DNA of 64,000 nucleotides from Dehalococcoidia bacterium (GTDB taxonomy: Bacteria; Chloroflexota; Dehalococcoidia; Plut-88900): positions 448,307-512,306 of the forward strand of contig CBDFLQ010000006.1 in the NCBI GenBank assembly GCA_965249275.1, written 5' to 3'. Shown here piece after piece: positions 12,841-45,124 of this stretch (its first letter is position 1; each line of letters opens with the position of its first letter). A program made the position numbers and the translations under genes. Under the pieces are notes generated by a model that was not told the DNA's origin, did not search any database, and saw nothing but the letters and a program-made list of their open reading frames with translations.

Positions 12841-12846
12841 TGGGCT

Positions 12847-23926: not shown

Positions 23927-24987
23927 TGAGGCTCCACGAATGTCAGTGCCCGCCTGGGGTTGTCTACCAGAATCCGTTGAATGTCTTCTTCCTTAAAGCC
24001 CTTGATACGCATCCTGGGCACCATGTATTCGAGAAAATAGCAGTACCCTTGGCCTCCGTACTTCACCAAATGGGCCTTCTGAGCTATGTCATGCGACACC
24101 ACTAGTTGGTCCCCGTGCCCCTCGCTTATCAGCCACTCCATCATGCTCAAACGCTGCGCGTCATTCATGATGTCTATGTGAGGTGCTGGCGGGTAGTACG
24201 AGACCTCCTGCCCGAAGATATCGTACTCCAGGAAGCACCCCGTCTCAGCCAACTCCTTCAACACTTTCTTGTCGAAGATAGTCCTGTCTAGGTGCCCGAC
24301 GATCACCCGCTCGGGATCGGCGCCCGCCTCCACCAGGATCTCCATGATCTCTTCTGGGCACGATTGGTCCCTGCCGGGATGTATTAGGATCGGAGCCCCC
24401 GTCAGCCTCTGCGCCCGAGCCGTGGCGCATAACACCTTCCTTTCGCTAGGGTGCAGTGGCCACGAACACCCCACCTCCCCCAACACCCCTGCACATACGC
24501 CCGTGCTCCCCACCCCTCTCAACACGTCCCCCGCTATCTGCTCGGTCAGCGACTCCTCGCTCCTTTCCTCCATCTTCGCGGGATGCCTCGAAGCTACGTA
24601 GAAAGACGCACCCATGATGATATGCACACCCGTGGCCCGGGATATGCGAGTCAGCCCCACCGGGTCCCGACCAATACCTAGGCTCGTAGCATCCACCAGC
24701 GCCGAGCCGCCGAACTGCTTGTACAGCCCCACTTCTTCGATGATGGTAGGAATGTCGTCCAGCCCGGAATTGTCCTTGTTTACGCCTCGCCCGTGGTGAA
24801 TCCAGCCTAGAACCTCCAAATTGAACGGGGCTTCGTACTTCCCATTCTGGCTTGCCCCCTCCGGCACGCCGAACACCCCATCAAACGACCCTAATACGTG
24901 CTCGTGCGTCATCGTAACGCCCAGGTCCTCCGGCTCTATAGGCCCAAGCACCGTCTGCACCTTACCTGCCAGGCTCACACCATTCAC
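23923..24987 (-). CDS. Phosphotriesterase-related hydrolase, tandem copy 2
   Basis: 354 aa with the same ligand set. About 80% identical to its neighbours by eye. GTGA overlaps at both ends. Confidence 0.85.
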   Translation of the reverse strand: MNGVSLAGKVQTVLGPIEPEDLGVTMTHEHVLGSFDGVFGVPEGASQNGKYEAPFNLEVLGWIHHGRGVNKDNSGLDDIPTIIEEVGLYKQFGGSALVDATSLGIGRDPVGLTRISRATGVHIIMGASFYVASRHPAKMEERSEESLTEQIAGDVLRGVGSTGVCAGVLGEVGCSWPLHPSERKVLCATARAQRLTGAPILIHPGRDQSCPEEIMEILVEAGADPERVIVGHLDRTIFDKKVLKELAETGCFLEYDIFGQEVSYYPPAPHIDIMNDAQRLSMMEWLISEGHGDQLVVSHDIAQKAHLVKYGGQGYCYFLEYMVPRMRIKGFKEEDIQRILVDNPRRALTFVEPQ

Positions 24988-26048
24988 TGAGGCTCCACGA
25001 ATGTAAGTGCCCGCTTGGGATTGTCTACCAGGATCCGCCGAATATCCTCCTCCTCGAAGCCCTTGATCCGCATCCTCGGCACCATGTACTCCAGGAAATA
25101 GCAGTACCCGTGCCCCCCGTACTGCACCAGTCGATTCTTGCGAGCGATGTCATGCGAGACAAGAAGCTGTCCCCCGTGCCCCTCGCTTATAAGCCATGCC
25201 AGCATGTTCAGCCGTTGAGCATCGTTGGGCATGTCTATGTGGGGTGCCGCCGGATACAGAGAAGTCTCTTGTCCGAACACGTCGTACTCCAGGAAACACC
25301 CCGTCTCGGCAAGGTTCTTCAGCAGTTTCTTGTCGAAGATGGTCCTGTCCAGGTGCCCGACAATCACTCGCTTGGGGTCCGCCCCCGCCTCTAGCAGGAT
25401 CCCCATAATCTCCGCCGGACTCGTCTGATCTCGACCCGGATGTATCAGGATCGGCGCCCCCGTCAACCTCTGCGCCCGAGCCGTGGCCCGTAGCACTTTC
25501 CGCTCAGTGGGGCGCAGGGGCCATGTGCACCCCACCTCCCCCATGATCCCCGCCTTTATCCCCGTGCTCCCCACACCCCTCAGCACATCCCCGGCTATCT
25601 GCTCGGTCAGTGATTCCTCGCTTCGTTCGTCCATGTCCGCGGGATGCGTCACGCCCACGTAGAACGACGACCCCATGATAACGTGCACTCCCGTGGCCCG
25701 TGAGATACGTGTCAACCCCACCGGGTCCCGACCCAGCCCAAGGCTCGTCGCATCCACCAGCGCCGAGCCCCCAAATTCCTTATATAGCCCCACTTCCTTA
25801 ACGATGGTGGGGATGTGGTCCAGCTTGGAATTATCCTTGTTGATTCCCCTTCCGTGGAGCAGCCAGCCGAGAATCTCGATGCTGAATGGAGCTTCAAACT
25901 TTGCCTTGAGGCTCGCCTCCGTCGGCTCCTTGTACACCCCGACCGTCGACACCAGCAGGTGCTCGTGCGTCATCGTCACGCCCAAGTCATCCGGGTTTAT
26001 CGGCCCTAGAACCGTCTGCACTTTCCCAGCCAGGCTAACGCTGCTCAT
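24984..26048 (-). CDS. Phosphotriesterase-related hydrolase, tandem copy 1 (first in the operon)
   Basis: 354 aa with an ATG start and the same ligand set. Confidence 0.85.
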   Translation of the reverse strand: MSSVSLAGKVQTVLGPINPDDLGVTMTHEHLLVSTVGVYKEPTEASLKAKFEAPFSIEILGWLLHGRGINKDNSKLDHIPTIVKEVGLYKEFGGSALVDATSLGLGRDPVGLTRISRATGVHVIMGSSFYVGVTHPADMDERSEESLTEQIAGDVLRGVGSTGIKAGIMGEVGCTWPLRPTERKVLRATARAQRLTGAPILIHPGRDQTSPAEIMGILLEAGADPKRVIVGHLDRTIFDKKLLKNLAETGCFLEYDVFGQETSLYPAAPHIDMPNDAQRLNMLAWLISEGHGGQLLVSHDIARKNRLVQYGGHGYCYFLEYMVPRMRIKGFEEEDIRRILVDNPKRALTFVEPQ

Positions 26049-27869: not shown

Positions 27870-29240
27870 ATGTCCACAGTCTTGACCAATGCCACTATAG
27901 TCACCTCGAACCCCAACAGGGACATTCTGTACGATGCAGCCCTGGCCGTAGATGACGGACGTATCGTCGCCCTCGGCCCGACCCCCGACATCCTGTCCCA
28001 GTTCCCCAACGCCGAGATCGTTGACTGCCCAGGCAAGACCGTCTTCCCGGGACTCATCAACGCCCACACCCATCTCATGCGCACCGTGGGGCGGGGCATC
28101 CTCGAAGATACGGGTTACCCCAACACTCTGCAACATCCCCAGGATGTCCGTGAGATGCTTAGCCCCGACGAGACCCGCGCAATGGTCATGCTCGGCGCCT
28201 TGGAATCTATACGGAGCGGGTCCACCGGTCTCATCGAAATTAGCCGGAACACGGAGACATTTGCCCCTGCCTTGGAAACAACGGGACTCCGGCTTGTATT
28301 GGCCGAAGTAATGGAAGACCTCGACCCTGAGCCCGCAAAACTCGGCATCTATGAGTACTCTGACGACCGCAGAGAAGCGAGCATCCAAAGAGGCTCCGGC
28401 TTAGTCGAAAAGTGGAACGGATCCGCTGGAGGCCGCATAACCTGCTTCTTCGCTCCCGGCGGCCCTGAGTCCTGCTCTCCCCAACTCCTGCGTTCCGTCA
28501 GAGACATGGCCGAAAGCTATGATATCGGCTACACCATTCACCTCTGCCAGAGCATGGTCGAGATGAACGCCATCCGCCGCATCTACGGCGTGCGCCCCAC
28601 CCACTACCTCTTCGCCAACGAGTTCCTCGGCCCCCGACTCCTCACCACCCACAATCGCTACGTCGATGATTCGGAAATAGCAATGCTCGGCGGCGCAGGC
28701 GTGAGCATATCCAACAACCCGGCCATCGCCGCCCGACGTGCTACAGCCGCCCCCGTCCTGGAGCTGCAAGCCGCCGGATGCAACGTCGCCATGGGCTCCG
28801 ACAACATGACCCACGACATGGTCGAGGTACTGCGCTCCGGCGTCTTCTACGAAAGGGTGCGCCGTAACTCCCAGATGCATCCCATGCCCGAAGACGTCCT
28901 CGAGTGGGCCACTATGGGTTCCGCCCGTGCCCTCCGCCTCGACCAAAAAGTCGGCTCCCTTGAACCGGGCAAACAAGCCGACCTCTTCATCATCAACTCC
29001 TCCCGCGCCCACCTCGTCCCCAACCTCAGAATCGTATCCGCGTTCGTCCACAACGGTCAGGCCGGCGACATAGAGTCCGTCATGGTAGATGGCCGGTGGC
29101 TAATGCGAGACCGCAAGGTTCTCACCATCGACGAGACCTCCGTAGTCGAAGCCGCCCAGGAAGTCGGCACCCGAGCCTGGCAACGCCTCCTCGATCGCTA
29201 CCCAGACGTCCCCTTCCCCTTCTCCCTCGTCCCAAACTAA
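27870..29240 (+). CDS. Amidohydrolase-superfamily deaminase/chlorohydrolase-like enzyme (MtaD/TrzA/guanine deaminase group)
   Basis: 456 aa. PGLINAHTHL metal motif, HLCQS, GSDN. Substrate unknown. Confidence 0.8.
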   Translation: MSTVLTNATIVTSNPNRDILYDAALAVDDGRIVALGPTPDILSQFPNAEIVDCPGKTVFPGLINAHTHLMRTVGRGILEDTGYPNTLQHPQDVREMLSPDETRAMVMLGALESIRSGSTGLIEISRNTETFAPALETTGLRLVLAEVMEDLDPEPAKLGIYEYSDDRREASIQRGSGLVEKWNGSAGGRITCFFAPGGPESCSPQLLRSVRDMAESYDIGYTIHLCQSMVEMNAIRRIYGVRPTHYLFANEFLGPRLLTTHNRYVDDSEIAMLGGAGVSISNNPAIAARRATAAPVLELQAAGCNVAMGSDNMTHDMVEVLRSGVFYERVRRNSQMHPMPEDVLEWATMGSARALRLDQKVGSLEPGKQADLFIINSSRAHLVPNLRIVSAFVHNGQAGDIESVMVDGRWLMRDRKVLTIDETSVVEAAQEVGTRAWQRLLDRYPDVPFPFSLVPN

Positions 29241-29613: not shown

Positions 29614-31143
29614 ATGCGTGTAAAGCCCCCATCCCTCGACGCCCTCTCCGAAATCGCAGAGTCCTATGGATTCGACCTTTCCGAAGAAGACTTGGAGTCC
29701 TTCCAGGGCCTCATCTCCCCAATAATGGCCTCCTATGAAAGGCTCGACCAGCTCCCTGAGCCCGCCTTGCCCGTAAAATACGCGAGAACTCCCGGACACC
29801 GCCCCTCCCCCGAGGACAACCCCCTCAACGCCTGGTACTGGCGCAGCGAGATCAAAGGCGCAGATTCCGGCCCACTGGCTGGCAAAACCGTAGCCATCAA
29901 GGACAACGTCTCCGTCGCAGGCGTTCCCATGATGAACGGCACCGCTGTGCTGGAGGGCTACGTCCCGAACTCCGACGCCACCGTCGTCACCCGCATCCTC
30001 GACGCCGGAGGCACTATCCTCGGTAAGGCCGTCTGCGAAAGCATGTGCATCTCCGGCGGCAGCCACACCTCCGACACCGGCCCCGTCCGCAATCCATATG
30101 ACCAGACCCGCAGCGCCGGGGGATCATCCAGTGGCAGCGCCGCCCTTGTCGGTTCGGGCGCAGTCGACATGGCCATAGGAGGTGACCAAGGCGGCTCCAT
30201 CCGGATACCCGGATGCTGGTGTGGCATCTACGGCCTCAAGCCCACCCACGGCCTTGTCCCCTACACCGGAATCTTCCCCATTGAGATCACCCTCGACCAC
30301 ACCGGCCCCATGGCCCGTTCCGCCGCCGACTGCGCCCTCCTCCTGGAGGCCATCGCCGGCCCCGACGGCCTGGACCCGAGACAGAACGCCAACCTCCAAG
30401 CGCAAGCCTATACTCAACTCCTCACTGGAGACGTCTCCGGCCTCCGTATCAGCGTCCTGGAGGAGGGCTTTGGATTAGACGGTCTTTCGGAAGAAGATGT
30501 CGACGAAATGAATCGTCAGGCTGCGTCAGGTTTCGAAACCCTTGGCGCAAGCGTGACCAGAGTTTCCGTCCCTTGGCACAAGGACGGCGTCCACGTTTGG
30601 AACGGCATCGGAATCGAGGGGCTCACCCTGCTGATGATCGCCGACAACGGCATGGGCACCAACTGGAAGGGCCACTATTCCACCGGTCTCCTCGACGCAT
30701 TTGCCCGTGGCCGCAGGACCCGCGCCAACGACTTCTCCGAGACCGTCAAGATGATCGTCCTCCTCGGCCAGTACCTCCACGACGACTATCACGGCAGGTA
30801 CTATGCTAAGGCCCAGAACCTGGGCCGCAGCCTCAAGGCCGCTTACGACCAGGCTTTCCAAGACGTCGACCTCCTCCTTATGCCGACCCTCCCTCTCAAA
30901 GCCACCAAGATTCCCAGCCCCGACGCATCCCGGGAAGAATACGTCGCCCGAGCCCTCGAAATGATCCCCAACACTGCGCCCTTCGATGTCACGGGCCACC
31001 CCGCCATTACCGTCCCCTGTGGCATGTCGGAGGGACTGCCCGTGGGAATGATGCTGGTCGGTCGCACTGGCGAGGATGCTACAGTCCTCCAGGCCGCCGA
31101 CGCCTTCCAACGCAACGTCTACTCCCCCGATTACCCGTCCTAA
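29614..31143 (+). CDS. Amidase (amidase-signature family)
   Basis: 509 aa. VAIKDNV (Lys) and GGSSSGSAALV signature. Confidence 0.9.
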   Translation: MRVKPPSLDALSEIAESYGFDLSEEDLESFQGLISPIMASYERLDQLPEPALPVKYARTPGHRPSPEDNPLNAWYWRSEIKGADSGPLAGKTVAIKDNVSVAGVPMMNGTAVLEGYVPNSDATVVTRILDAGGTILGKAVCESMCISGGSHTSDTGPVRNPYDQTRSAGGSSSGSAALVGSGAVDMAIGGDQGGSIRIPGCWCGIYGLKPTHGLVPYTGIFPIEITLDHTGPMARSAADCALLLEAIAGPDGLDPRQNANLQAQAYTQLLTGDVSGLRISVLEEGFGLDGLSEEDVDEMNRQAASGFETLGASVTRVSVPWHKDGVHVWNGIGIEGLTLLMIADNGMGTNWKGHYSTGLLDAFARGRRTRANDFSETVKMIVLLGQYLHDDYHGRYYAKAQNLGRSLKAAYDQAFQDVDLLLMPTLPLKATKIPSPDASREEYVARALEMIPNTAPFDVTGHPAITVPCGMSEGLPVGMMLVGRTGEDATVLQAADAFQRNVYSPDYPS

Positions 31144-31834: not shown

Positions 31835-32827
31835 TCAGCCCCCGAACACCGCCTCCGCAAAGCTCTCCATGATCGCCTCTATCGAGGGGTAAGGTCCTCC
31901 CGCCCCTGGCAGTGTGATCACCACTTCTCCAATCTCCGGCATCTCTACAAGCGCGGCGACCTTCTCCCTTACCTCCTGAGCATCCCCCGCCACGGTAAAC
32001 CTGTCGATGAACGGATCGAGCCCCGGGACCGGCTCCGTATCTCCTCCACTCAGGCTTGCAAGGTTGTAGTCCCTCTTGAACACCTCGATTGCTTGGCGGT
32101 CTTCTTCGCTGTACCGGCTAGTGTCCACCATTTTCAACATCGTCAGCACCCGACCCTGCACGTGCGCCCTTGCCACAGCTCGGTCCTCCGCCAACGACGT
32201 GATTACCCACGCCGCCTTCTCCACTTCTCCCGGGTTTCTCCCCACCTCCGACTCCCCCTCTTTAACTAGCTCCAATCCTTCCCTGACCTGAGACGGCACG
32301 GCCCCGTAATGGAGCAGCACACCGTCCGCCACCCGACCCGCTGACCTGGTAATCCTCGGCCCCGACACCGCAAAATAGATCGGTATCCCCGTGGGTTCCT
32401 CTAGGTACGCAATCCCTCCCCTCACCCCCCGCCCGAACTCCACATCCTCCCCCGACAGCAGGCCCCTGACTTTCTCTACGTATCCCTCCAATGACGCGAT
32501 CGTCGACCTCTTCGCCCCGATACTATTCACCAACGTGTTACCTACACTCATCCCTAGTATCAACCGACCCGGAGCAATGTCGTGCAATGTGGCAAATGCC
32601 CCTGCCGTCACGCTCGCATGCCTTGTCCGCGGCGCCGTAACCCCTGCCGCCAGCTTGATCCGGGACGTGGCCAGGGCACATGCCGTCAACGTCACGTACA
32701 ACTCCCGGCAGTTCAGCTGCGAGTCGATCATCCAAACGCTCTCGTAGCCCAAATCCTCGGCCATCTTCACCTGCTCCACCACCCGAGGCAGTGGCTGGTT
32801 GCTCACAATCCCGACGCCGTATTTCAT
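31835..32827 (-). CDS. LLM-class F420-dependent oxidoreductase
   Basis: 330 aa. GYESVWMIDSQ and an LLM TIM-barrel pattern. Confidence 0.8.
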   Translation of the reverse strand: MKYGVGIVSNQPLPRVVEQVKMAEDLGYESVWMIDSQLNCRELYVTLTACALATSRIKLAAGVTAPRTRHASVTAGAFATLHDIAPGRLILGMSVGNTLVNSIGAKRSTIASLEGYVEKVRGLLSGEDVEFGRGVRGGIAYLEEPTGIPIYFAVSGPRITRSAGRVADGVLLHYGAVPSQVREGLELVKEGESEVGRNPGEVEKAAWVITSLAEDRAVARAHVQGRVLTMLKMVDTSRYSEEDRQAIEVFKRDYNLASLSGGDTEPVPGLDPFIDRFTVAGDAQEVREKVAALVEMPEIGEVVITLPGAGGPYPSIEAIMESFAEAVFGG

Positions 32828-32941: not shown

Positions 32942-34054
32942 CTACATGTCCCGGTAGACGGCTAACCCTTCGGCCAGCTTGTCGGAGCGCTCCAACCCGA
33001 CATACCTTGCGTTCTGCAGATACGTCCTCACGAAATCACCCAGAAGACTCCCGACTCTCTTCATTCCCGTCCGCACACCTTCCACCCCGTGGCCCATGAT
33101 CACGCCCAGGGACTCGGGCAGCACCGGGTCTTTCAGGTCCCTCACCATCTGCGCCTCCGCGATGTCAAGCACCCGCTGGAACACCCTCTCCTTACCGGGC
33201 TGCTGGGAGTAGGAGTATTTGATATGCGCCAAGCCGTAAGTCAAGTGTCTCGCATTGTCCTGCAGGCACCGTGCGAAGATGGCCTTCTCCGCCGGGTTGT
33301 GGGCGTACATCTCACCGTACCGGTAAAGGGTCTGGGTAAATGCGCCTCGCATTACGTGCAGGAACAAGCTCGTCGAAGTCCAGTCATTGTTGCTCTGCAG
33401 TATGACTCTGTCGACTTCCCCCCGGCTCTCGAGACCCAGGCCTCCCCCGTTGCTCAAAGCCCTCTTCCGGAATACGTCAAAGTGCCGTGCCGCGTCGAAC
33501 ACCTCAGAGGCCAGGAAGACTTTCACTTCGTGGTAGCCATACGACATTTGCTGGATCCACCCTGCCACAACCTCGTACTCCACGTTGGCCTGTTGACACA
33601 GCTCCGTACAGAGCTGGCACATAGCCCTTTCCACATCGTCAGGTAGCGGCTCTATGGTGTTCCACGGGATGTCGGTCGCCGGGACCCAGCGCTTCTGGAT
33701 CGCCTCCTCGTACAGGTCGGCAGCGTTGTCGGCCCACAGTTCGCGCTTATGCCGCAGGGTGATGTTTGCTACGAAAGGGCGTTCCACCCCGGGGTGCGCA
33801 CCGCGAAGGGCCCGCGTCCTGTCCTCGTGGTACTCAGGGATTTGGCCGTAGATCCCAACATTCAGGGACCCGAGAGTCAGCCCCTTCTTACCCGGCTTGA
33901 CCCTGATCCCCCACTCGAGATTCTCCTGCATCCAGTCCAGCGACAGGTCAGGGGCAGCAGTTTCTTCCTCTTCGACTATCTCCTGGAGGATGCGTTGGTG
34001 CTTCCTGACACCCCCCGGCTGCTGGGGCTCGGATTTCTCGTCATTTGTTGGCAT
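32942..34054 (-). CDS. Ferritin-like superfamily protein, degenerate paralog (all four carboxylate ligands replaced)
   Basis: Paralog of 34145..35239. Aligned ligand positions read Q, DAARH, G, DNARH. Preferred start is the ATG at 34054 (MPTNDEK, GAAGG 5 nt upstream); the ORF is open to 34120. Confidence 0.65.
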   Translation of the reverse strand: MPTNDEKSEPQQPGGVRKHQRILQEIVEEEETAAPDLSLDWMQENLEWGIRVKPGKKGLTLGSLNVGIYGQIPEYHEDRTRALRGAHPGVERPFVANITLRHKRELWADNAADLYEEAIQKRWVPATDIPWNTIEPLPDDVERAMCQLCTELCQQANVEYEVVAGWIQQMSYGYHEVKVFLASEVFDAARHFDVFRKRALSNGGGLGLESRGEVDRVILQSNNDWTSTSLFLHVMRGAFTQTLYRYGEMYAHNPAEKAIFARCLQDNARHLTYGLAHIKYSYSQQPGKERVFQRVLDIAEAQMVRDLKDPVLPESLGVIMGHGVEGVRTGMKRVGSLLGDFVRTYLQNARYVGLERSDKLAEGLAVYRDM

Positions 34055-34144
34055 ATATGCCTTCTCTGGAACGGGCTGCAGACCCGGATACATCGGCCAA
34101 CTGCCGGCGTACGAACGCAATTGCGGCCTTAGGACCGAGGGCTA

Positions 34145-35239
34145 TCAGTTGCGAAGCAGTTTCAGTACCTCGGGGTGCGCCCGACCATTGGTGAAACGCT
34201 CCTCGAACCCGGCCGACTTAACCCTCTGCACCCACTCCCGCATCTGCCTACGGTTGATCGCCATAAGCAGCCGCCATCCCTCGTCCACCTTGTCCTTGCC
34301 ACCGCCAAGCAAAACCGCCATCGACGCCGTGCTTGCCCTGTCCGTCCCTGCAGACCCAACCGCCGACCCCTCGAACAAGTACTCTTCTCCCTCGTCCAGG
34401 TACGTCTGCATCTCTTCTCGGCGCTCCGGCTCCGTCTGCCCTATGTAGCGCATGTGCATGATGCCGAAGGCCACGTGCCGAGACTCGTCCTGTGCTGCGA
34501 GCCGGTACATCCGCTTCTCGGCTTCGTTCTTCGCCAGCAACTCCCCAGTGCGGAAAATCGTCAACACCGGGGACTCCCCGATTACGTGAACGCGGGCCGA
34601 CATCTCCGAGAAGTCCCTCGCCATGTCGATGCTGACCACGCCGCCGCCCATCGTGTCGTCCGAGGCTCGCATTAGGCCCCCGCCGTTTACCAGGGCTCGC
34701 TTGCGGAACACGTCCAGGTGCCGTGCCTCATCCATCATCTGCGTCATCAGGAACATCCGGGTCTCCAGGTAGTCGGGGCTGATGCTCGCAACCCACCGAC
34801 CAGGAATATCCGCAGCAACAAACTCAATCTCGCTCAGGAAGGTCGTGAACTGACACGCTGCCCGTTCGATATCGTCAGGCAGGGGCTCAATCGTCTCCCA
34901 GGGTATGTCTGTCGCCGAACTCCACTGCCGCTGAAGCGCCTCCTCGTACAGGCCACCGGCGTTCTTCAGCCAAACGTCCTGCTTGGAGTTCACGTAGTAA
35001 GCGCCGCTCCTATAGTTCCAGTCCCTCGCCGCCGACCCCCTCTGCCGCCCGGACCGGATGGAGCTGTTCTCCGGGGCGTCTCCGTAGGAGTCCATTTGGA
35101 TGTCTTCCAGGGTCAACCCGCGCTTGCCGGGCGTGGCCGTCATGCCCCACTGTCCCTTATCCTCCATCCAGCCCAATTGGGGTTCGTAGTTCTCGTCGTA
35201 AATTACGCCCGGACCCGCGGAAATGGTGGTGTTCGGCAT
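34145..35239 (-). CDS. Ferritin-like diiron-carboxylate protein (putative oxygenase/oxidase subunit)
   Basis: 364 aa. E...DEARH...E...DESRH, a 2 x (E, ExxH) pattern at four-helix-bundle spacing. Confidence 0.65.
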   Translation of the reverse strand: MPNTTISAGPGVIYDENYEPQLGWMEDKGQWGMTATPGKRGLTLEDIQMDSYGDAPENSSIRSGRQRGSAARDWNYRSGAYYVNSKQDVWLKNAGGLYEEALQRQWSSATDIPWETIEPLPDDIERAACQFTTFLSEIEFVAADIPGRWVASISPDYLETRMFLMTQMMDEARHLDVFRKRALVNGGGLMRASDDTMGGGVVSIDMARDFSEMSARVHVIGESPVLTIFRTGELLAKNEAEKRMYRLAAQDESRHVAFGIMHMRYIGQTEPERREEMQTYLDEGEEYLFEGSAVGSAGTDRASTASMAVLLGGGKDKVDEGWRLLMAINRRQMREWVQRVKSAGFEERFTNGRAHPEVLKLLRN

Positions 35240-35432
35240 GTCGATTCCCCCTGAGAGCCGCTATCCAAGACCTATATACCACGCTCAATATAATTCCCCA
35301 TCCGAGCCCGTGTCAAACCGGATCGAATTTGTAGTAAGCGCAATACCCCACGCATGGTACAATCCAGCCCTTCATACTGAACACCCCGCGGCCCATTCCA
35401 GACTCGGATAACCTAGCAGAGGAATTTGCGAC

Positions 35433-38258
35433 ATGACTACCACAGCTCCCATTTCTCTCAACGTCAACGGCTTGACTCACACCGTTGAAGCATCGCCTGA
35501 CAGCACCCTTTTGGAAGTCCTGAGAAATGACCTTGACTTAATCGGGGCAAAGCAGGCCTGTGACGTTGGTGAATGTGGTAGTTGCATAGTCATGTTCGGC
35601 GGCAAGGGCGTCATGTCATGCCTCCTCCCAGCCCGACGCGCCCAAACCAAGCCCATAGTCACAATCGAGGGCCTCGCCGACTGGCACTCCCAATCTAAAG
35701 AGGCTCCAGCCCCAGAAAGTTCCGACCTCCACCCGCTCCAACAGGCTTTCATAGACTTGGGCGCCTCACAGTGTGGCTACTGCATACCGGGAATCATCAT
35801 GGAAGCCTCGGCCCTCCTGGCCAAGAATTCCAACCCCACCCGAGACGACGTAGTCAAACGTTTGTCCCGTAACATCTGCCGCTGCACCGGCTACGTTAAA
35901 GTGGTCGAGGCAGTCCTAGGTGCGGCAGAGGCCATTCGTAGCGGCACGCTTACCTTGAAGGAAGCATCCAATGGTGGACCGACGGTAGGAGCTAGCATAA
36001 CCCGGGTCGACGATAGGGAAAAAGTGACTGGCGAGGCCCGCTATGCCGCCGACCTCAAGATGACTGGCGTCCTTCACGCCAAGGTCCTTCGCAGCAAGGT
36101 CCACCACGCCCGTATCATCTCTATCGACACCAGTGCCGCCGAAGCCGTCCCCGGTATTGAAGCCGTCGTCACTGCCAAGGACATCCCCGGCTCACCCGAA
36201 ATGCCCAACGCCAAACCCCAGCGCTTCCTCTTCCCCTCGGACAAGATTCGGTTTATGGGTGAAGCCCTCGCCGCGGTCGCAGCGGAATCGGAAGAAGCTG
36301 CAGAAGAGGCTCTATCCAAGATAGTCGTTGAATATGAAGAACTCCCTCCGGTCCTCGACTTCCGCAAAGCAGATGACCCCGAAGCTCCCCTGATCAATCC
36401 CCCCGAGCCGAATACGGTTATTTCCAGGAGAGTCATCTCAGGCGATGCCAAGGCAGCTATGGAAAAAGCCGACGTTGTGGTCAGGAACACCTTTTCCACC
36501 CCCCGCTGGGAGCACTTCTACATGGAACCCGAGGCGGGCCTTGGTTATATCGACGATGACGGTCGTATCTTCCTGAACTTCCCTTCCCATGAACCCTTCG
36601 AGGGTCACGACTTCGTAGCTAGTATGCTCAACCTCGACCGCGACCGCGTCAGAATATTCTGCCCGACAATGGGTGGAAACTTCGGTGGTCGGGAAGACTA
36701 CATGCTGGTAGGTGTATTGGCCTTGCTGGTACACAAGACCCGAAAGCCTGTGAGGCTGGTCTTCACCAGGGAGGAATCTCTGCTGGGCTCCTCCAAGTGG
36801 TTCGGCTTTTATGTTGACTGCACCACCGGCGCAACCAAGGATGGAAAACTCGTTGCTATCGACTCCCATGTGCTGGTAGACGGTGGAAATTGGAGCCACG
36901 AGCCGGGTCAGGAGATTAACGACTGTGTGGGCCGAAACGTCTACTTCCTCACCGGTCCTTACCTCGTCCCCGAAGTCCGCATCGAGACCAGCGAGGCATG
37001 CACCAATAGCGGCCGTGCTATACCCATCAGGGGTATAACCAGCATTAACGCCGCCCTCGTCCACGAAAGCCAGATGGACATCCTCGCCGAAAAGCTGGGC
37101 ATGGACAAGCTGGACATCAGGATCAAGAACGCCCTCCAGGTCGGCGACACCCTCCACACTGGAATGTTACTTGAGGAGAGCGTGGAGGTTAAGGCGACCC
37201 TGGAACAGTCCAAAGGCCCCTATGCTGAGGCCCGCGCCCGAGCCCAGGCCTCCCCACCCCCCGCTCCGTGGCAGAGAGGCGTGGGCATTGGGACCGGTTG
37301 GAGAGCTGTAGGCGTCGGCGGCACATATTCCGCCGCCGCCGATTTGTTGGAATCGGGGAAGGTGCAAGTGTTGGTGGGAGCAGTCGAGAAGGGCCAGGGG
37401 AGCAGGACCGCCATGGCGCAGATCGCCGCGCAAGAGCTCGGCTTGCCTCTCGACGCCATTGAAGTGGTCATGGGCGACACCATTGCCGCTCCCTACCATC
37501 ACATAACCGCTTCCCAGGGTACTATCACTCTCGTAGGCGGCGCAGTCCAACAGGCCTCGAAAGCACTGAAGAAGGCGCTTTTAGAAGTCGCTTCCGAGGT
37601 CCTTGAAGACACCCCCGAGAACATCAAGTGTTCCGGCGGACGTGTCTCCTCCACCCGGGCCCCGGGAGAGCAACTCTCCTTCCAGGAGCTCGCCCGACAC
37701 CTCGAGACCAAAGGCCTCCCCACCAAGTACGAAGGCTCGTTCGCCTTTAAGTTTGCCAAGACCTACAGCGAAAAGTCCGGCCTGCAGGCCTTCGACCCGG
37801 TAAACGGCCAAGGGTCCAACTGCGACATCTTTGCATACGCCACCTGTCTCGCCGAGCTGGACGTCAACACGGAAACCGGCCAGGTCAAGGTCAACCGCGT
37901 TACCTACGTCGCCGACTCCGGCAAGATCATCCATCCCCTCAGCTTCGAAGGACAGTGTCAGGGAGGCGTTGTCTACGGTCTGGGTCTGGCCTTGAGCGAA
38001 GAATACATCCCCGGAGAGACCCGTACCATCAAGGACTACGGCCTTACCTCCATCCGTGAGGCGCCCGTAGAAATTGATGTCATCACCGTCGAAGGAAGCT
38101 ATTCCCAAGGGCCCTTCGGGGCCAAGGGTGGCGGCGAAATGAGCGACGTTCCCATCGTCGGGGCCATCATCAACGGCATCGCCGACGCCACCGGCGCCCG
38201 AGTCTACGATCTCCCCGCCACCCCCGAAAGAGTCCTGGAGGCCTTGGCCCGAGGCTAG
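35433..38258 (+). CDS. Molybdopterin oxidoreductase of the xanthine oxidase family with fused N-terminal 2x[2Fe-2S] domain (MOP-type aldehyde oxidoreductase architecture)
   Basis: 941 aa. CDVGECGSCIVMFGGKGVMSC (plant-type 2Fe-2S), CGYCIPG...CRCTGY (second cluster), GEARYAADL, MGGNFGGRED. No FAD subunit gene adjacent. Confidence 0.85.
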   Translation: MTTTAPISLNVNGLTHTVEASPDSTLLEVLRNDLDLIGAKQACDVGECGSCIVMFGGKGVMSCLLPARRAQTKPIVTIEGLADWHSQSKEAPAPESSDLHPLQQAFIDLGASQCGYCIPGIIMEASALLAKNSNPTRDDVVKRLSRNICRCTGYVKVVEAVLGAAEAIRSGTLTLKEASNGGPTVGASITRVDDREKVTGEARYAADLKMTGVLHAKVLRSKVHHARIISIDTSAAEAVPGIEAVVTAKDIPGSPEMPNAKPQRFLFPSDKIRFMGEALAAVAAESEEAAEEALSKIVVEYEELPPVLDFRKADDPEAPLINPPEPNTVISRRVISGDAKAAMEKADVVVRNTFSTPRWEHFYMEPEAGLGYIDDDGRIFLNFPSHEPFEGHDFVASMLNLDRDRVRIFCPTMGGNFGGREDYMLVGVLALLVHKTRKPVRLVFTREESLLGSSKWFGFYVDCTTGATKDGKLVAIDSHVLVDGGNWSHEPGQEINDCVGRNVYFLTGPYLVPEVRIETSEACTNSGRAIPIRGITSINAALVHESQMDILAEKLGMDKLDIRIKNALQVGDTLHTGMLLEESVEVKATLEQSKGPYAEARARAQASPPPAPWQRGVGIGTGWRAVGVGGTYSAAADLLESGKVQVLVGAVEKGQGSRTAMAQIAAQELGLPLDAIEVVMGDTIAAPYHHITASQGTITLVGGAVQQASKALKKALLEVASEVLEDTPENIKCSGGRVSSTRAPGEQLSFQELARHLETKGLPTKYEGSFAFKFAKTYSEKSGLQAFDPVNGQGSNCDIFAYATCLAELDVNTETGQVKVNRVTYVADSGKIIHPLSFEGQCQGGVVYGLGLALSEEYIPGETRTIKDYGLTSIREAPVEIDVITVEGSYSQGPFGAKGGGEMSDVPIVGAIINGIADATGARVYDLPATPERVLEALARG

Positions 38259-38280: not shown

Positions 38281-39519
38281 GTGAGAACCCTTCTGGCGAT
38301 CCGGGACAAGCGGGCCTACGGCTGGGCCGTCCTGGTATCCTTCACTATCAACTACGCCTTAGTCGTAGTTGTCTTCATGACCTTGGGCCTGCTTCTCCCG
38401 GATATCAGGGAAGACCTGGGCATTGACGTCCGGGGAGCCGGCTGGCTCGCCTCGTCTCTCCTAATCGCCAACCTCTTCCTCGAAATACCTCTGAACTGGG
38501 TGTTGTCCAAGTTCCGGCCCTGGAGGGTGGCCACCATCGCCTTCCTTGGCACGCTGGCTATGGTCTTCCTTCATTCCTTCTCCCCTACCTTCACCATCTT
38601 GGTTATCGCCAGGGTGGGCCTGGGAGTCTTCTACCTCTCAACCCAACCACCCAGGACTCTTCTAATCCTCATGTGGCTCCCCAAGAAGAGCGTAGGGCTC
38701 GCCAACGGTATGCTTTTTGGCATAATGGCCCTCTTCGAGGGAGCCGGCTTCATCCTGATCCCACAAATCAATGACTGGACGGGCGGCTGGCGAGAGACCC
38801 TCTTCGTGTGGGCCATCCTATGTGCCGCCGGGACCCTCGTCTGGACTATAGTTGGGGTCGACCGCAAGTCCTTGCAGCTTGAGCCCGGCCCCGATCCCCC
38901 TCCCCAGTACGTCAATCCTCTCCGCTCTCTCCTGAAGTACAAGGAACCTTGGTTCCTGGGCCTCGGCCTTTCCGCAGGCATCGCAGGCAGGTTGGCCTTC
39001 GACACTTGGTGGCCTACCTTCGCCGAAAACACCTATGGCATCGAAAAAACGGCAGCAGGTCAGGTTCTTGCTGTGATCTCAGTTTCCGGGTTTCCTTCTT
39101 CCCTGGGCCTGTCCGCAATACCCTATCTTGTACGCAAGCCTGCACTAGCCTTGATCGCCGCAGGTATGATGCTTGCAGGCAGCTACATAGCCATGCTCTT
39201 CACTGGGTCGCTTCTTTACCTGTTCCTCCTGGCCTTGATAAACGGCTTCGCTTTTGGATTTTTCCCCCTGATGATGGCATCCTTCTACAACTTGCGCGGC
39301 ATCCAACCGAGAGACCTGGCCGTTGTCGTGGCCCTCGTCTACACCATTATGTGGGGTGGCGCCGCCATCGGACCCGTCCTCTCAGGTTTCATTGCCGGCA
39401 ACGACGAAAACCTGCGGCAGGGTATCTTGGTGTTATGCTTTGGACCGCTCGGCATATCCCTATCCGGCCTGTGGCTACTGCTTCGCCGCCCCCCCGAGGG
39501 CCCTGCCTTAACCTCTTAA
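38281..39519 (+). CDS. MFS transporter, paralog 1
   Basis: 412 aa with 12 helices. About 35-40% identical to the next gene by eye. Confidence 0.8.
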   Translation: MRTLLAIRDKRAYGWAVLVSFTINYALVVVVFMTLGLLLPDIREDLGIDVRGAGWLASSLLIANLFLEIPLNWVLSKFRPWRVATIAFLGTLAMVFLHSFSPTFTILVIARVGLGVFYLSTQPPRTLLILMWLPKKSVGLANGMLFGIMALFEGAGFILIPQINDWTGGWRETLFVWAILCAAGTLVWTIVGVDRKSLQLEPGPDPPPQYVNPLRSLLKYKEPWFLGLGLSAGIAGRLAFDTWWPTFAENTYGIEKTAAGQVLAVISVSGFPSSLGLSAIPYLVRKPALALIAAGMMLAGSYIAMLFTGSLLYLFLLALINGFAFGFFPLMMASFYNLRGIQPRDLAVVVALVYTIMWGGAAIGPVLSGFIAGNDENLRQGILVLCFGPLGISLSGLWLLLRRPPEGPALTS

Positions 39520-39540
39520 GATGGACACCGCCTAAAGCTA

Positions 39541-40785
39541 ATGGCCACCCAGCCCGAATACATAGGCCCTTACCGATGGGTCATAGTAACCTCGGTAACC
39601 ACACTTACTGGTGCCCATCTGGTAGTCATCTACATTATTGGCCTGCTCCTGCCGGACATGATCAAGGATTTGGACCTGTCCCCTACAGAGCAGGGATGGG
39701 TCGGTTCCTCCGTCCTGTTGGCAAACCTCGTCATGGCCATCCCTCTAAACACGCTGCTGTCCAGATTCAAGCCCTGGAGGGTCATCGCCATAATGTCCGT
39801 GGCAGTTGCCGGGTTCGGCTTCCTCCAGGGCTGGTCCCCTGTCTTGGCTGCGTTAATCATAGGGAGGGTGGGAGTCGGACTTGGCTTCGCAGCTACCATG
39901 GCGCCCCGAGCCATGATGCTTCAGCAGTGGTCCACCCAGCGCCGCATAGCTCTTACCAACGGCGCATGGGTATCCGGTGTCGACGTTTTGATGGGCGTCG
40001 GATTCCTGGTCACTCCTTTTGTGCTGGACTGGGTTGGTAGCTGGCAGGGCGTCTACTACTTCTGGGGTTTTGTCAGTCTCGGCCTGGCCGGCCTCTGGCT
40101 CGTTTTCGGCAAGGAGAGGCCCACCGGCGAATACCGAGACAGGATGGCTACCCAGCAGGGCAGCCCACTCACCGTCTTTCGAAAATATCCCGAGCTCTGG
40201 ATTGTCGGCCTCGGAATGTTCGGCGGCATGACCGCCAACACCGGTTTTCAGACGTTCTGGCCTCGCCTGGCGGAAGAGCAGCTCAGCATCGACCCGAAGA
40301 TCGTAGCCCTCACCCTTGCTTTCCAGGCCTTTGCCACTGCACCCCTTGGATTCCTCGTCAACGCCGTCCCTCGTTTCGTCGGCAAGCAGCCCCTGATACT
40401 AGCCTTTGGCGGACTTGCCGTCACCGCTTCCTACATCAGCCTCCTGTACGTCACAGACACGCGGGTTGTTCTCCTTCTGGGTATTGGGGAGGGAATATCC
40501 CGGGTCTATTTCCCCGTCCTGATGACCATGGTGTTCCAGCTCCCGGGAGTCAAACCCCGAGAAGCTGGTGTCGGACTCACTTTCATAGAGACTTGTATTT
40601 GGGGTGGCGGTGCGCTCGGGCCCCTTGTTGTAGGCTTCGTGGAGGAAGCCACCGGTGACCTGAGGACGGCTATTTTGGTCATCTGTTTCGCACCCCTGGT
40701 CCTGATACCCGTTGCGGGATTATTGGCGCTTCGCAGGTGGGACCCCTTCGCAAACCTTGCCCCGGGTCGTGCGCCTGGCTCTTAG
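39541..40785 (+). CDS. MFS transporter, paralog 2
   Basis: 414 aa with 12 helices. Confidence 0.8.
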   Translation: MATQPEYIGPYRWVIVTSVTTLTGAHLVVIYIIGLLLPDMIKDLDLSPTEQGWVGSSVLLANLVMAIPLNTLLSRFKPWRVIAIMSVAVAGFGFLQGWSPVLAALIIGRVGVGLGFAATMAPRAMMLQQWSTQRRIALTNGAWVSGVDVLMGVGFLVTPFVLDWVGSWQGVYYFWGFVSLGLAGLWLVFGKERPTGEYRDRMATQQGSPLTVFRKYPELWIVGLGMFGGMTANTGFQTFWPRLAEEQLSIDPKIVALTLAFQAFATAPLGFLVNAVPRFVGKQPLILAFGGLAVTASYISLLYVTDTRVVLLLGIGEGISRVYFPVLMTMVFQLPGVKPREAGVGLTFIETCIWGGGALGPLVVGFVEEATGDLRTAILVICFAPLVLIPVAGLLALRRWDPFANLAPGRAPGS

Positions 40786-42059
40786 CCCAGGAACCTCCAA
40801 TCGAACGGCGCCTGAGAAATGACCTCGGGTTCGTTCCGGGTGATTATCACCTGCTCTTCCAGCTTCACCTGTTCCAGCCCGTTCTCCCGACCCCAACTGG
40901 ACTCGACGGAAATCACCATGTTTTCCTCCAGCACACCGGGATAGTTCCCAAATCCCGTGTCGCTCCCGTCCGGGAAGAAGATCGCCGGGTATTCGTCTGA
41001 CATGCCGTCCCCGTGGGCCAGAATGGTGTAGCGGTTAGCTCTGTACTCCTCCGGCATTTGGGGAGCTCTCTCAGAAATCTCCTGGAAGCTCACACCCGCC
41101 CGATACAGCGGTAGGCAGTCCTGGAGGAATTGGTAGGCCCGCTTGTAGGCATCCGACTGCTCCTCATTTGGCTTAGCATCTCCGCATAGGTAAGTCCGGG
41201 ATATGTCGGCGAAGTAGCCCAGTGGGCCTGCCATGTCCGTATCGATAGTCACGAGATTACCAGGCAGCACCAGCCGGTCCGAGGCCTCGCGCTTGAGCCA
41301 CGGATTGGTGTTCCCTCCCGCGCAGAGCAGCTTGGAGTCCGTCCTTTCTCCCCCAAAATTCAGATTCGTCGACGCGAGTACGGCGTAAAGTTCGTTTTCG
41401 GTGACACCGGGCTCGATCGCTTCCTGCACCTTCGCCAGGGCCACGTCCCCGATGGCACATGCCTGCTTGATCAGGACCAGCTCGTCCTCGGTCTTGATCA
41501 TCCTGGCCAGATTCATGAGCATTAGCCCATCCTCAAGAGACACTCCCTGTTCCTCAAGTGAGTGGATGGTCAGAATGTCCGACCTATCCATCGCAAGCTG
41601 TTCACCGGCGATGTTCAACTCCGTCAACACGTCCCGCATCTCTACCGCCCACCTTTTCGTCGCTTCGACTACGTAGCTCCCCGTACGCCACGAGTCCATG
41701 TTCGACGCAGGCCGACCTATGACATCATCCCCCAATACCGGAGCCTCGGTGACCGAGGGCATGAATAGAATCGGCTTACCCTCTCGGGGAATCAGGGCAT
41801 GGCGGCCCTTCAGGTGCAGCAGGAAAGTCTCGAAGTTGCGAGCCCCGATAGCGTAGCGCACGTTAATCGGGTCGAATAAAAGCAGTCCGCCCAGGTTGGC
41901 CCGCGCCAGTTCCGCCTGAATACGCCCGATGCGCTCCCGCCGGAGCCTCCGCACGTCAACCCGCTCCTCAAAGTCGACCACCTGAGTCCCGACAACATCT
42001 TTTTCATGGATTCGCTTGGCACACAATGCTCTATCCCTCGCTTCCTGTTTACGGCCCAT
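40782..42059 (-). CDS. M24-family hydrolase (creatinase/prolidase fold)
   Basis: 425 aa with an N-terminal creatinase/prolidase-type domain and a pita-bread C-terminal domain. HGDGMSDEYP replaces the canonical HGxGxxxHE. Confidence 0.7.
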   Translation of the reverse strand: MGRKQEARDRALCAKRIHEKDVVGTQVVDFEERVDVRRLRRERIGRIQAELARANLGGLLLFDPINVRYAIGARNFETFLLHLKGRHALIPREGKPILFMPSVTEAPVLGDDVIGRPASNMDSWRTGSYVVEATKRWAVEMRDVLTELNIAGEQLAMDRSDILTIHSLEEQGVSLEDGLMLMNLARMIKTEDELVLIKQACAIGDVALAKVQEAIEPGVTENELYAVLASTNLNFGGERTDSKLLCAGGNTNPWLKREASDRLVLPGNLVTIDTDMAGPLGYFADISRTYLCGDAKPNEEQSDAYKRAYQFLQDCLPLYRAGVSFQEISERAPQMPEEYRANRYTILAHGDGMSDEYPAIFFPDGSDTGFGNYPGVLEENMVISVESSWGRENGLEQVKLEEQVIITRNEPEVISQAPFDWRFLG

Positions 42060-42201: not shown

Positions 42202-43365
42202 ATGAATCAGAAGGTAGTGTCCGCTGACTGTCACATAGACCTGAGCTGGTTGCCGGAAGACCTCTTCATCAACCGTGCCCCGGCTCACCTGCAGTCCGCA
42301 ATGCCCAGGGTCGAAGAGACCGAAGACGGCCGTTGGTGGAAAATCGAAGACGCAGTCATATCCAGGGTAGCCGGTTCCGGACTCAGCGGCACTGGCGAAA
42401 AGTATGTGCCCGGTTTTTCCCTCCACCTCGACAAAATGGAGGAAGAAGGTTTCTTCTCCGATGCCGCAGAGGGCCTCTACCACCCCACCACCCCCGAACT
42501 CCGGCTCCGGGACCAGGACATCGATGGCATTAGCGGGGAGGTAATCTACGGAATTCTCGGGGTAGCCAGCGGGTTCGCCGCCGGCGGAGACGCCGTACGC
42601 AACTCCGAGGCCCTGGGCGCGATCTACGAGATTTACAATGAGTGGGCATCCGAGTTCTGCGCCACAAACCCCGACCGATTCATAGGACTCGCATGCCTCA
42701 CTAGCCACGATCCCAAGCTTGCTGCGCAACAGCTGGCTACCGCCGCGGACCTTGGCCTCCGCGGTGCCGAGTTCAACGTTTCCAGTGCTTCGACACCTAT
42801 CTATCAACCGGAATGGGACGAACTGTGGGCCGTCTCGGCAGAACGGCAAATGCCCATCTCATTCCACACTGTCGGGCTTCCATACCGGAAGCCTGACGCC
42901 GGCACCCCCGACTACTGCCAGTACGTTGCCATGGGTATAAACTTCACCCTCTTCCAGCTCTCTGGTGCCGAATATCTGGCAAGCATCATCCTTTCCGGCG
43001 CCTGCTCCAAAAACCCCGACTTCAACTTCGTCCTCGGCGAATGTGGCGTCGGCTGGATCCCTTATGTTCTCCACCGGTTGGACCAGGAGTACAAGGACCG
43101 GCTCTTCCACCTGAATCTGGAAATGGACCCCAGCGACTACTGGCGACGCCAGGGCCACTCCACCTTCCAGGACGAGGTCGTCACCCAGGAGCTAGTTGAC
43201 CTCATCGGAGTTTCCAACATCCTGTGGGGCTCAGACTACCCCCACCCCGACGGCATATGGCCCGAGTCCCGGCAGCTCCTCGAAACTAACTTGGCTGCCC
43301 TGGATGAGGAGACCCGGACAAACATCACCTACCGGAACGCCGCCGAGCTATACCGTTTCAACTAA
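42202..43365 (+). CDS. Amidohydrolase_2 (ACMSD-like) family hydrolase/decarboxylase, paralog 1
   Basis: 387 aa. VSADCHIDL and WGSDYPHPDG motifs. Confidence 0.8.
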   Translation: MNQKVVSADCHIDLSWLPEDLFINRAPAHLQSAMPRVEETEDGRWWKIEDAVISRVAGSGLSGTGEKYVPGFSLHLDKMEEEGFFSDAAEGLYHPTTPELRLRDQDIDGISGEVIYGILGVASGFAAGGDAVRNSEALGAIYEIYNEWASEFCATNPDRFIGLACLTSHDPKLAAQQLATAADLGLRGAEFNVSSASTPIYQPEWDELWAVSAERQMPISFHTVGLPYRKPDAGTPDYCQYVAMGINFTLFQLSGAEYLASIILSGACSKNPDFNFVLGECGVGWIPYVLHRLDQEYKDRLFHLNLEMDPSDYWRRQGHSTFQDEVVTQELVDLIGVSNILWGSDYPHPDGIWPESRQLLETNLAALDEETRTNITYRNAAELYRFN

Positions 43366-43891: not shown

Positions 43892-45124
43892 ATGAGCGCA
43901 CCCTACCATAGCCGCCCCACCGCGCCCCAATCGACCAACTACCGCTTCGTCATCATCATAGCGATGATGTTACCCCACGTCTTCGGGTTCATTATCCTGG
44001 AGAGCCTGGGGCTGATGCTCCCCAGCATCAACAGGGAGTTTCACCTTAGCCCAACGGAAGAGGGAATCCTGGGGTCTGCCCCCCGGATAGGAATGATGAT
44101 TCTCGCCCTTCCCGCGGGCTTGTGGTTCTCCAAACTCAATGCTAAACACGTCACCACAATTACCTTCATTCTTGGGGCGCTGCTGGTGCTGCTCCAGGGT
44201 TGGTCGCCTATCTTCGCTGTGCTTCTGCTGGCTAGGGCGCTCTACGGCATCAGCATGGTCGTCCGAGAGCCAGTCAGGGCAATGCTCGTACGCCAATGGG
44301 CCCTTCCCAGGGAAGTAGTCACGATCAACGCCCTTTCTAACATGTTGTGGGGCGTCACCGCCGTCGGTTTCCTGCTGGTACCCCTTCTACTAAGGGCCCT
44401 GGACGACGACTGGCGGACAACTTTTTATATCTTCGCCGCGGGCATCCTTGGACTGACCCTGATATGGCACATATTTGGCAAGGAGCGGATATCTCCTCAG
44501 TACCAGGCTGACATGCTTGCCCAGACCCGAAGCCCCATTTCTTCCATCTTCCGCTACAGGGAACTCTGGTTCCTCGCCTTCGGAGTCTTGGGCAACGCCG
44601 CCGCGTGGTCCGCCTTTGCTGTCTTCTGGCCCAGTTTGATGCTGGAGAAATTCGGCCTCTCCGAACTCACCTCCGGTTCCATCATTGCAATTGGTGGCGG
44701 AGTTTCGGCCTTTGCAGGCATAGGGGTGGGGATTCTGACCAACAAGATCGGTAAGAAGCGCGTCATCCTTTGGTGGTGCGGCGTCGGAATGGCCGTAACC
44801 CAGGTCGCATTCCTCTGGACGGGATCCTTTGGATGGCTGGTCCTGATCACTGCGGTCAACGGGGTGGCCTGGTCCCACTTCCCAATTGTCCTGACCATCC
44901 CATTCCAGCTGCCCAACATCAAGCCCCGAGAGATCGCTACCGCCATAGGGTTCCTGGAAACTGCCGTATGGGCCGGTGCTCTGGTCGGGCCCATACTCAC
45001 CGGCGCCCTGGAAGACTTCGCTCTGGATCCCCGACTTGCCCTTATGGTCACGGCAGCCATGCCGATAAGCCTGTCAATTGCCGCAATGCTCCTCCCGAGA
45101 AAGTGGGACGAGCTAACCGTCTAG
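43892..45124 (+). CDS. MFS transporter, paralog 3
   Basis: 410 aa with 12 helices. Related to 38281 and 39541. Confidence 0.8.
   Translation: MSAPYHSRPTAPQSTNYRFVIIIAMMLPHVFGFIILESLGLMLPSINREFHLSPTEEGILGSAPRIGMMILALPAGLWFSKLNAKHVTTITFILGALLVLLQGWSPIFAVLLLARALYGISMVVREPVRAMLVRQWALPREVVTINALSNMLWGVTAVGFLLVPLLLRALDDDWRTTFYIFAAGILGLTLIWHIFGKERISPQYQADMLAQTRSPISSIFRYRELWFLAFGVLGNAAAWSAFAVFWPSLMLEKFGLSELTSGSIIAIGGGVSAFAGIGVGILTNKIGKKRVILWWCGVGMAVTQVAFLWTGSFGWLVLITAVNGVAWSHFPIVLTIPFQLPNIKPREIATAIGFLETAVWAGALVGPILTGALEDFALDPRLALMVTAAMPISLSIAAMLLPRKWDELTV

Follow-up and report, generated by a model that had tools for sequence, protein, structure and literature searches.

Why does a bacterium keep, next to the gene for a ferritin-like dimetal protein, the gene for a paralog that has lost every carboxylate with which it could hold the metals? 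The question is raised by two genes, here called A and B, in a 64,000-nucleotide stretch (the window) of the genome of a Dehalococcoidia bacterium (GenBank assembly GCA_965249275.1, contig CBDFLQ010000006.1, positions 448,307 to 512,306 of the forward strand). Our answer, to which we give a probability of roughly 0.55, is that A and B are the catalytic alpha subunit and the degenerate structural beta subunit of a heteromeric, O2-activating dimetal-carboxylate enzyme with an Fe/Fe or Mn/Fe centre. The original prediction, made from the sequence of the stretch, had described A and B as adjacent paralogs; this is borne out by open reading frames at the positions given in Table 1 and by BLASTP (35% identity over 325 residues, E 6e-67), and the segments then quoted as common to both proteins are real and fall on positions that both paralog families conserve. 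The two genes are 90 nt apart, both starts are preceded by Shine-Dalgarno-like purine-rich sequences, and 114 nt separate B from a following gene for a luciferase-like (LLM) oxidoreductase. The length of B is counted from an ATG at 34054, and its frame is open further, up to a TTG at 34120. A begins with a family-specific N-terminal arm of ~95 residues that is kept in B.

The contrast between the two proteins lies in the metal ligands. The ligand set of A comprises E139, E171-x-x-H174, E222 and E252-x-x-H255, whereas B has Ala, Ala-x-x-His, Gly and Asn-x-x-His at the aligned positions, keeping both His and also second-shell Asp residues. All six ligands are present in 100% of the 121 best database homologs of A type, and the B-type consensus in the 121 best homologs reads Ala/Ala/His/Gly/Lys/His, the B of the window having Asn in place of the Lys. 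A second set of 138 proteins (82 A-type or solo, 56 B-type), drawn from 84 genomic loci independently of the database homologs, gave the same picture: 82/82 A-type proteins carry all six ligands, 56/56 B-type proteins carry none of the four Glu, and the more divergent B-type proteins have lost His174 too. In these alignments, the pairing of a complete A with a degenerate B is far beyond chance. The complete 2 x (E...ExxH) pattern that had been read in the upstream protein is kept in all A-type relatives examined. For B, the claim that every Glu is replaced while both His are retained holds, and the choice of the helix-1 ligand needs correction: position E137 of A, which is Gln in B, had been taken, but E139, which is Ala in B and 100% conserved in A-type proteins, is most likely the ligand. 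Since both E137 and E139 are replaced in B, the point about the lost Glu residues stands.

No Pfam match was obtained for A or B. The best NCBIfam matches of A are the R2lox models (NF006200/NF006202/NF006198/NF006199), reached at 39.1 bits versus a cutoff of 194, and B also stays below the cutoff of the R2lox models with 15.2 bits; no NrdB model is among the NCBIfam matches of A. At E ≤0.001, two database searches yielded 1503 relatives for A and 2163 for B, none with a Pfam domain and all named 'hypothetical' or at best 'ferritin-like domain-containing'. A profile search run exhaustively over 1.84 billion representatives gave at least 1178 clusters (50% identity) at E ≤0.001 and 229 clusters at E ≤1e-30. 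These searches place A and B in a widespread R2-like family without a curated name, in agreement with the earlier remark that the proteins could not be put into a named family.

The AlphaFold2 model of A, built from 116 sequences, has a mean predicted local distance difference test (pLDDT) score of 86.4 and a predicted TM score (pTM) of 0.85. Four long helices that follow one another (residues 122-152, 158-186, 210-235 and 239-269) bear a ligand set apiece, all within blocks of pLDDT >90; the metal site is assigned from which helix bears each ligand. As modelled, A has the classical diiron four-helix-bundle arrangement, so that the E and H residues stand up to the structural check that had been proposed for them. 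In a Foldseek search of this model against the PDB, the best 50 matches (36 of them at E ≤0.001, from 6e-5 to 1e-3; TM ~0.5) consist only of R2-superfamily proteins and the alpha subunit of soluble methane monooxygenase (sMMO-alpha): the R2 proteins of ribonucleotide reductase (RNR), including the Mn/Fe R2c of Chlamydia, are on top, and R2lox and VlmB/'Protein 60' are also found. A profile of 87 A-type sequences matched the VlmB homolog 6D9F/8WVR at 2e-5 and 27 bits, spanning helices 1 to 4, and the R2lox structures at E ~0.01. The DEaRH/DEsRH motifs of A align with the ExxH motifs of R2lox, and both DExRH motifs align with VlmB. Phe178 (H174 plus 4), invariant in A-type proteins, stands at what we take to be the radical-Tyr position of RNR R2, a position presumably occupied by Phe in R2c as well. 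The A/B family has an R2-like fold and metal site and is outside R2lox, RNR R2, VlmB and PaaA/PaaC; the nearest structures (VlmB, R2lox and RNR R2) are all remote relatives.

In a FastTree tree of the 138 proteins, the B-types all lie to one side of a single branch with support 100, and the A-types with and without an adjacent B are intermixed on the other side. By this topology, B arose from a single ancient duplication. Across 1431 locus pairs, mean identity is 53% between A proteins and 39% between B proteins, A has diverged less than B in 99.9% of the pairs, and the A-A and B-B divergences correlate (r = 0.93). B nevertheless has 40 positions that are ≥90% conserved, nearly all of them common to A and outside the metal site, among them residues of the N-terminal arm, the LYEEA..W block, W131, E142, the R.RAL.N.G block, D266/R269 and Y345. 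Judged by these rates, B is a faster-evolving yet constrained, probably non-catalytic partner that keeps the scaffold of A and probably also the same interface. The two genes also travel together, and so the pair stands up to the co-occurrence check that had been proposed: in 60 of the 78 loci with room for both, B comes immediately after A on the same strand. Among 84 loci, no natural A-B fusion was seen; long open reading frames spanning A and B in three of them (L020, L021 and L027) were rejected as fusions, as they appear to stem from over-extended alternative start codons. The family is present in 101 of 301 evenly sampled Dehalococcoidia genomes (55 of 192 genera), many of the carriers having at least six copies; all nine genomes of the window's own genus have exactly two family matches, one A and one B.

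Beyond the pair itself, two small proteins, here called S and Z, recur with it. Downstream of the pair, many Dehalococcoidia and marine Pseudomonadales encode one S protein or two (130-150 residues) as well as Z (90-100 residues, Zn_ribbon_8), in the operon orders A-B-S(-S)-Z or A-B-Z-S, and some A-only loci in Binatia and delta-proteobacterial metagenome-assembled genomes (MAGs) read A-S. S has no Pfam match, SCP2 included. Its profile matches the SCP2 of T. thermophilus (2CX7/1WFR) at 5e-4, its AlphaFold2 model reaches a pLDDT of 97, and the only high-probability folds in Foldseek are UbiJ-SCP2, AF1534 and human SCP2 (probability 0.77-0.99, TM 0.5-0.6, with weak E of ≥0.01), which points to an SCP2-type alpha/beta fold. 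Z contains four Cys, its tail LDPKYDxMVD is conserved, and one Z weakly matches a desulforedoxin-type domain (E 0.018). In the 301 Dehalococcoidia genomes, S and A/B are both present in 92, A/B only in 9, S only in 4 and neither in 196, so that the two occur together in 92 of the 105 genomes with either (Fisher p = 4e-61, ignoring phylogeny); six of the nine A/B-only genomes have one weak match each (five with a best E near 1e-52, one with 4e-43). By these counts, S is a family-wide partner of A/B. We found no published account that joins ferritin-like diiron proteins with SCP2 and a Zn-ribbon, nor one of ferritin-like counterparts in SAR202.

The genome of the window itself holds two S copies and a Z at other places (Table 1). 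The first copy shares an extra GGG segment with the S that comes first in two-S operons and the other belongs to the second S type, the two types having been assigned by eye on the alignment; the Z has the Cys4 and LDPKY motifs of the cassette and is paired with S copy 2. In the sister genus (G059), A-B-S is contiguous, and the cassette seems to have come apart in the window's lineage.

Signals of expression are also present at the pair. A scan for consensus promoters in the window returned three sites versus 0.8 expected, of which the sigma-70-like candidate ahead of A is the best, as judged by consensus match alone. No terminator-like site was found between A, B and the LLM gene, and the latter is possibly co-transcribed with A-B. 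Four sponge metatranscriptomes contain contigs, 95-99% identical, that cover A, and one 317-nt RNA contig spans the stop of A and the start of B, which suggests transcription and co-transcription of A/B in a closely related strain.

Named systems resemble the pair in part. R2lox shares with A the R2-type ferritin fold, the E/ExxH/E/ExxH site and the Phe instead of a radical Tyr after the first ExxH, and it is the best NCBIfam match of A and among the best fold matches. The six-residue dimetal site on a four-helix bundle is found in A but not in B, and A stays far below the curated R2lox cutoff given above. R2lox differs in being a homodimer without a degenerate paralog and in lacking the arm, which is extra in the A/B family. 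In the R2lox register that we assume, in part from the titles of PDB entries, V72 is E69 plus 3 and the Tyr lies on the helix of the fourth ligand. In A, the residue at E139 plus 3 (ligand plus 3 on helix 1) is an invariant Ala, and helix 3 (residues 210-235, FSEMSARVHVIGESPVLTIFRTGELL) has no Tyr. The Tyr-Val pair that forms the canonical ether cross-link beside the metal site of R2lox (PMC9314684) is missing in A. R2lox binds long-chain fatty acids of C16-C18, haloarchaeal R2lox genes are clustered with ferredoxin and sterol-carrier genes (PMC9314684), and GkR2loxI is reported to hydroxylate alkanes (PMC10867098). The clustering of R2lox with ferredoxin and sterol-carrier genes parallels the putative SCP2-fold and Cys4 partners of A/B. 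VlmB, the valanimycin azoxy synthase, is the best profile match among solved structures and a diiron enzyme that oxidises aliphatic hydrazines (PMC11705231), but it is only ~18-19% identical to A and partners VlmO in actinomycete natural-product clusters. Among the conserved neighbours of A/B, there is no VlmO-like gene (no search was directed at VlmO), no context of N-N chemistry and no degenerate partner of VlmB type.

With the soluble diiron monooxygenases and PaaA/PaaC, the pair has in common a catalytic diiron subunit, a ligand-less related subunit and small accessory proteins, and sMMO-alpha is among the fold matches of A. However, A and B have no detectable membership in these sequence families, their accessory proteins are a putative SCP2-fold protein and a Cys4 zinc-ribbon, and no reductase, Rieske ferredoxin or MmoB/DmpM-type effector is among the recurrent neighbours at the 84 loci. 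The comparison with the active and degenerate subunits of PaaA/PaaC, drawn in the original prediction, is useful as an analogy and fails as homology, which was ruled out: neither A nor B matches PF05138 at E ≤1, a fold match is lacking, and R2lox, VlmB and RNR R2 are nearer. In yeast, Rnr2 and Rnr4 combine a ligand-complete protomer with a paralog without metal ligands that stabilises and activates its partner. This pairing of a complete and a ligand-less paralog within the R2 superfamily is, as an analogy, the closest one inside the superfamily, although the yeast heterodimer makes a tyrosyl radical for ribonucleotide reduction and docks R1, whereas A has Phe and no RNR context. An RNR R2 identity of A was ruled out by Phe178, the lack of an NrdB match and the lack of an R1-like conserved neighbour (the genome was not searched for nrdA).

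Taken as a working mechanism, A and B would pair as a pseudo-symmetric heterodimer derived from a homodimer. B, a partner subunit that is probably non-catalytic, would have taken the place of the second protomer, and only A would bind Fe/Fe or Mn/Fe and activate O2. The metal site would then oxidise or hydroxylate a hydrophobic, lipid-like substrate, possibly activated as a thioester of coenzyme A (CoA); CoA-transferase and hydratase genes among the neighbours make a CoA-activated substrate possible. S proteins would act as SCP2-fold carriers that hand the substrate to A/B, and Z could be an electron shuttle (rubredoxin-like) or an adaptor. In the window's genome, A and B, perhaps with the F420-type LLM, would stand behind one promoter, with S and Z encoded elsewhere. 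A/B is probably part of an uncharacterised multicomponent oxygenase. The fuller proposal, which we hold tentatively and consider somewhat more likely to be wrong than right, is an unrecognised multicomponent Mn/Fe or diiron oxygenase made up of A/B, an SCP2-fold carrier or two and a Cys4 protein that resembles rubredoxin. It would be common in SAR202-type Dehalococcoidia, often with several copies per genome, and would attack greasy compounds that resist degradation, for example alkanes, acids of isoprenoid or alicyclic type, or the CoA esters of these. S and Z could in that case be a substrate-delivery and electron module shared by two unrelated oxygenase folds, the other being amidohydrolase-fold oxygenases like PtmU3 and AibH2.

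Several observations weigh against this picture of a catalytic alpha and structural beta subunit with accessory proteins. The likeness to known enzymes is remote (TM ~0.5, E 1e-4 to 1e-5), so the chemistry of those enzymes is not transferable to A/B. No reductase, ferredoxin or Rieske gene recurs near the pair at the 84 loci, and a redox function of Z is conjecture. Kinship among the genomes is uncorrected in the association of S with A/B. S is not adjacent to A/B in the window's genome, and the start of its first copy coincides with the stop codon of the Amidohydro_2 gene ahead of it, to which it is translationally coupled, so S may serve other enzymes. The best solved relatives of that gene product (8SM6-8SM9, PtmU3 and AibH) are of the oxygenase branch of PF04909 and not decarboxylases, and S and Z may act for dimetal oxygenases of two unrelated folds. 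As for the RNA contigs, their source is a strain of 95-99% identity, their depth is low, and DNA carry-over is possible.

The arrangement of the genes offers a further objection, as A lacks an adjacent B in 18 of the 78 loci with room and may thus work as a homodimer. A would then be a dimetal oxidase by itself and B a separate non-catalytic factor for ligand binding, regulation or metal delivery. Solo A genes are scattered on the tree, requiring ~10-12 changes, a close relative (L001) has two of them, and B, with both His and an R2lox-type scaffold, could still form a ligand pocket. We nonetheless consider a homodimeric A unlikely: genomes with a solo A often have a B elsewhere (for example P0133 on the 3.2-Mb contig of L001), the order of A then B has been maintained since the single ancient duplication, and the conserved positions of B are those shared with A outside the metal site, as expected of a pseudo-symmetric interface. 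A role of A/B as generator of a radical or oxidant for a separate partner enzyme, in the manner of RNR R2, would agree with the RNR R2 proteins, Mn/Fe R2c of Chlamydia included, at the top of the Foldseek matches and with Phe178 at the radical-Tyr position as in R2c, by the register we presume. It is highly improbable in view of the absence of a conserved partner enzyme nearby, where only S and Z are conserved, of NCBIfam matches that are to R2lox models and not to NrdB and are far below the cutoffs, and of the ~95-residue arm, which R2 lacks.

An aryl-CoA epoxidase of PaaA/PaaC or BoxB type would follow the same logic of an active and a degenerate subunit, and CoA-transferase and enoyl-CoA hydratase genes do occur near some family members; we find it hardly credible, with no PaaA/PaaC Pfam match even at an E of 1, no PaaA, PaaC or BoxB structure in the best 50 Foldseek matches or the PDB profile matches, and no conserved PaaB/D/E-like genes nearby. 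The chance that A/B serve iron storage or detoxification, as a ferritin, Dps, rubrerythrin or encapsulated ferritin, is close to nil: a ferritin-like four-helix bundle with a dimetal site is common to both, but A and B are ~365 residues long with an R2-type architecture and extra helices, neither Pfam, NCBIfam nor the PDB returned ferritin, Dps or rubrerythrin matches, and the neighbourhoods are catabolic and coupled to SCP2-fold proteins.

Table 1. Features of the window and of related loci. Positions are those of the window unless a contig handle precedes them.
Feature	Position	Strand	Remarks
Gene A, R2-like ferritin-fold subunit	34145-35239	minus	364 residues; complete dimetal ligand set
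Gene B, ligand-less paralog of A	32942-34054	minus	370 residues
Luciferase-like (LLM) oxidoreductase	31835-32827	minus	Bac_luciferase 3e-49; best PDB matches F420-dependent Mer, 5e-39
Promoter candidate, sigma-70-like	35287-35316	minus	TTGACA-18-TATATT; 11/12 consensus matches; ~48 nt upstream of A start
Fused 2Fe-2S/molybdopterin hydroxylase, xanthine-dehydrogenase family	35433-38258	plus	Fer2, Fer2_2, Ald_Xan_dh_C, MoCoBD_1, MoCoBD_2
S copy 1	C6:665078-665509 (L009:7079-7513)		~180 kb from A/B, same contig
Amidohydro_2 gene ahead of S copy 1	L009:5994-7079		
S copy 2	C5:728823-729236 (L010:6800-7246)		other contig
Z of the window's genome	L010:7256-7540		
Three tandem phosphotriesterase (PTE) family paralogs	22856-26048	minus	each ~355 residues
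Amidohydrolase	27870-29240		
Amidase	29614-31143		
MFS transporter region	38281-40785	plus	
Creatinase/prolidase-type M24	40782-42059		
Amidohydro_2 gene	42202-43365	plus	nearest PtmU3 (2e-33) and DitZ
MFS transporter region	43892-45124	plus	
Amidohydro_2 gene	45141-46265	minus	nearest PtmU3 (2e-58) and DitZ
Mo-enzyme, A - OpuAC - A' - B - LLM	L091:5712-10283		Logan SRR31984834 contig
Solo A-type genes	L001:8001-9080 and 12581-13672		ENA ctg836583, 3.2 Mb

The wider gene neighbourhood is less constant than the pair. The LLM gene downstream and the molybdenum hydroxylase divergently upstream are present as originally described; their co-occurrence with the pair across genomes, for which a survey had been proposed, holds only for close relatives. 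Among the 84 loci, the neighbours counted are family III CoA-transferase (20 loci), SDR (17), LLM (~14), SBP_bac_5 (8), enoyl-CoA hydratase (7) and Mo-hydroxylase (5), and the LLM and Mo-enzyme genes, linked to the pair only in close relatives such as L011 and L091, were ruled out as conserved partners. The gene order of the window (Mo-enzyme, A-B-LLM, then methyltransferase-amidase-amidohydrolase) is likewise common only to close relatives. In one of these, L091, an OpuAC betaine-binding-protein gene is inserted between two copies of A, which are 93% and 87% identical to the A of the window. The two solo A-type genes of L001, the closest relatives of the window's A outside its genus, flank SDR, Amidohydro_2 and LLM genes and adjoin a Rieske oxygenase and a phage-type integrase.

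Both Amidohydro_2 genes of the window are nearest to the diiron monooxygenase PtmU3 and to DitZ, and they are candidates for amidohydrolase-fold oxygenases rather than hydrolases or decarboxylases. The window also holds three phosphotriesterase paralogs in tandem and two tandem MFS transporters with a third nearby, the MFS genes being flanked by the M24, amidase and amidohydrolase genes. This neighbourhood is rich in genes that handle amides and N-compounds, and it is conserved in L091. The A/B segment (32942-35239) is found in many sponge-associated sequencing runs (X1-X38) and in sponge metatranscriptomes, and its best genome match is a Dehalococcoidia MAG (L011, OZ240215.1) at 99% identity; the bacterium is probably a sponge symbiont of SAR202 type.

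Ferritin-fold dimetal enzymes perform some of the hardest oxidations in biology, and their R2lox branch is without a settled physiological role. The A/B family is a distinct, probably heteromeric R2-like branch with its own accessory proteins, which is apparently expressed in sponge microbiomes and is carried by about a third of the sampled Dehalococcoidia genomes as well as by sponge symbionts and marine Pseudomonadales. Should A/B prove to be an oxygenase whose substrates are lipid-like or alicyclic, the toolkit that has been proposed for SAR202 and sponge symbionts against recalcitrant organic matter would gain an enzyme class. R2lox-type chemistry would then also have a group of genes amenable to biochemical reconstitution, in which a structural subunit is joined by a carrier and possibly by an electron donor.

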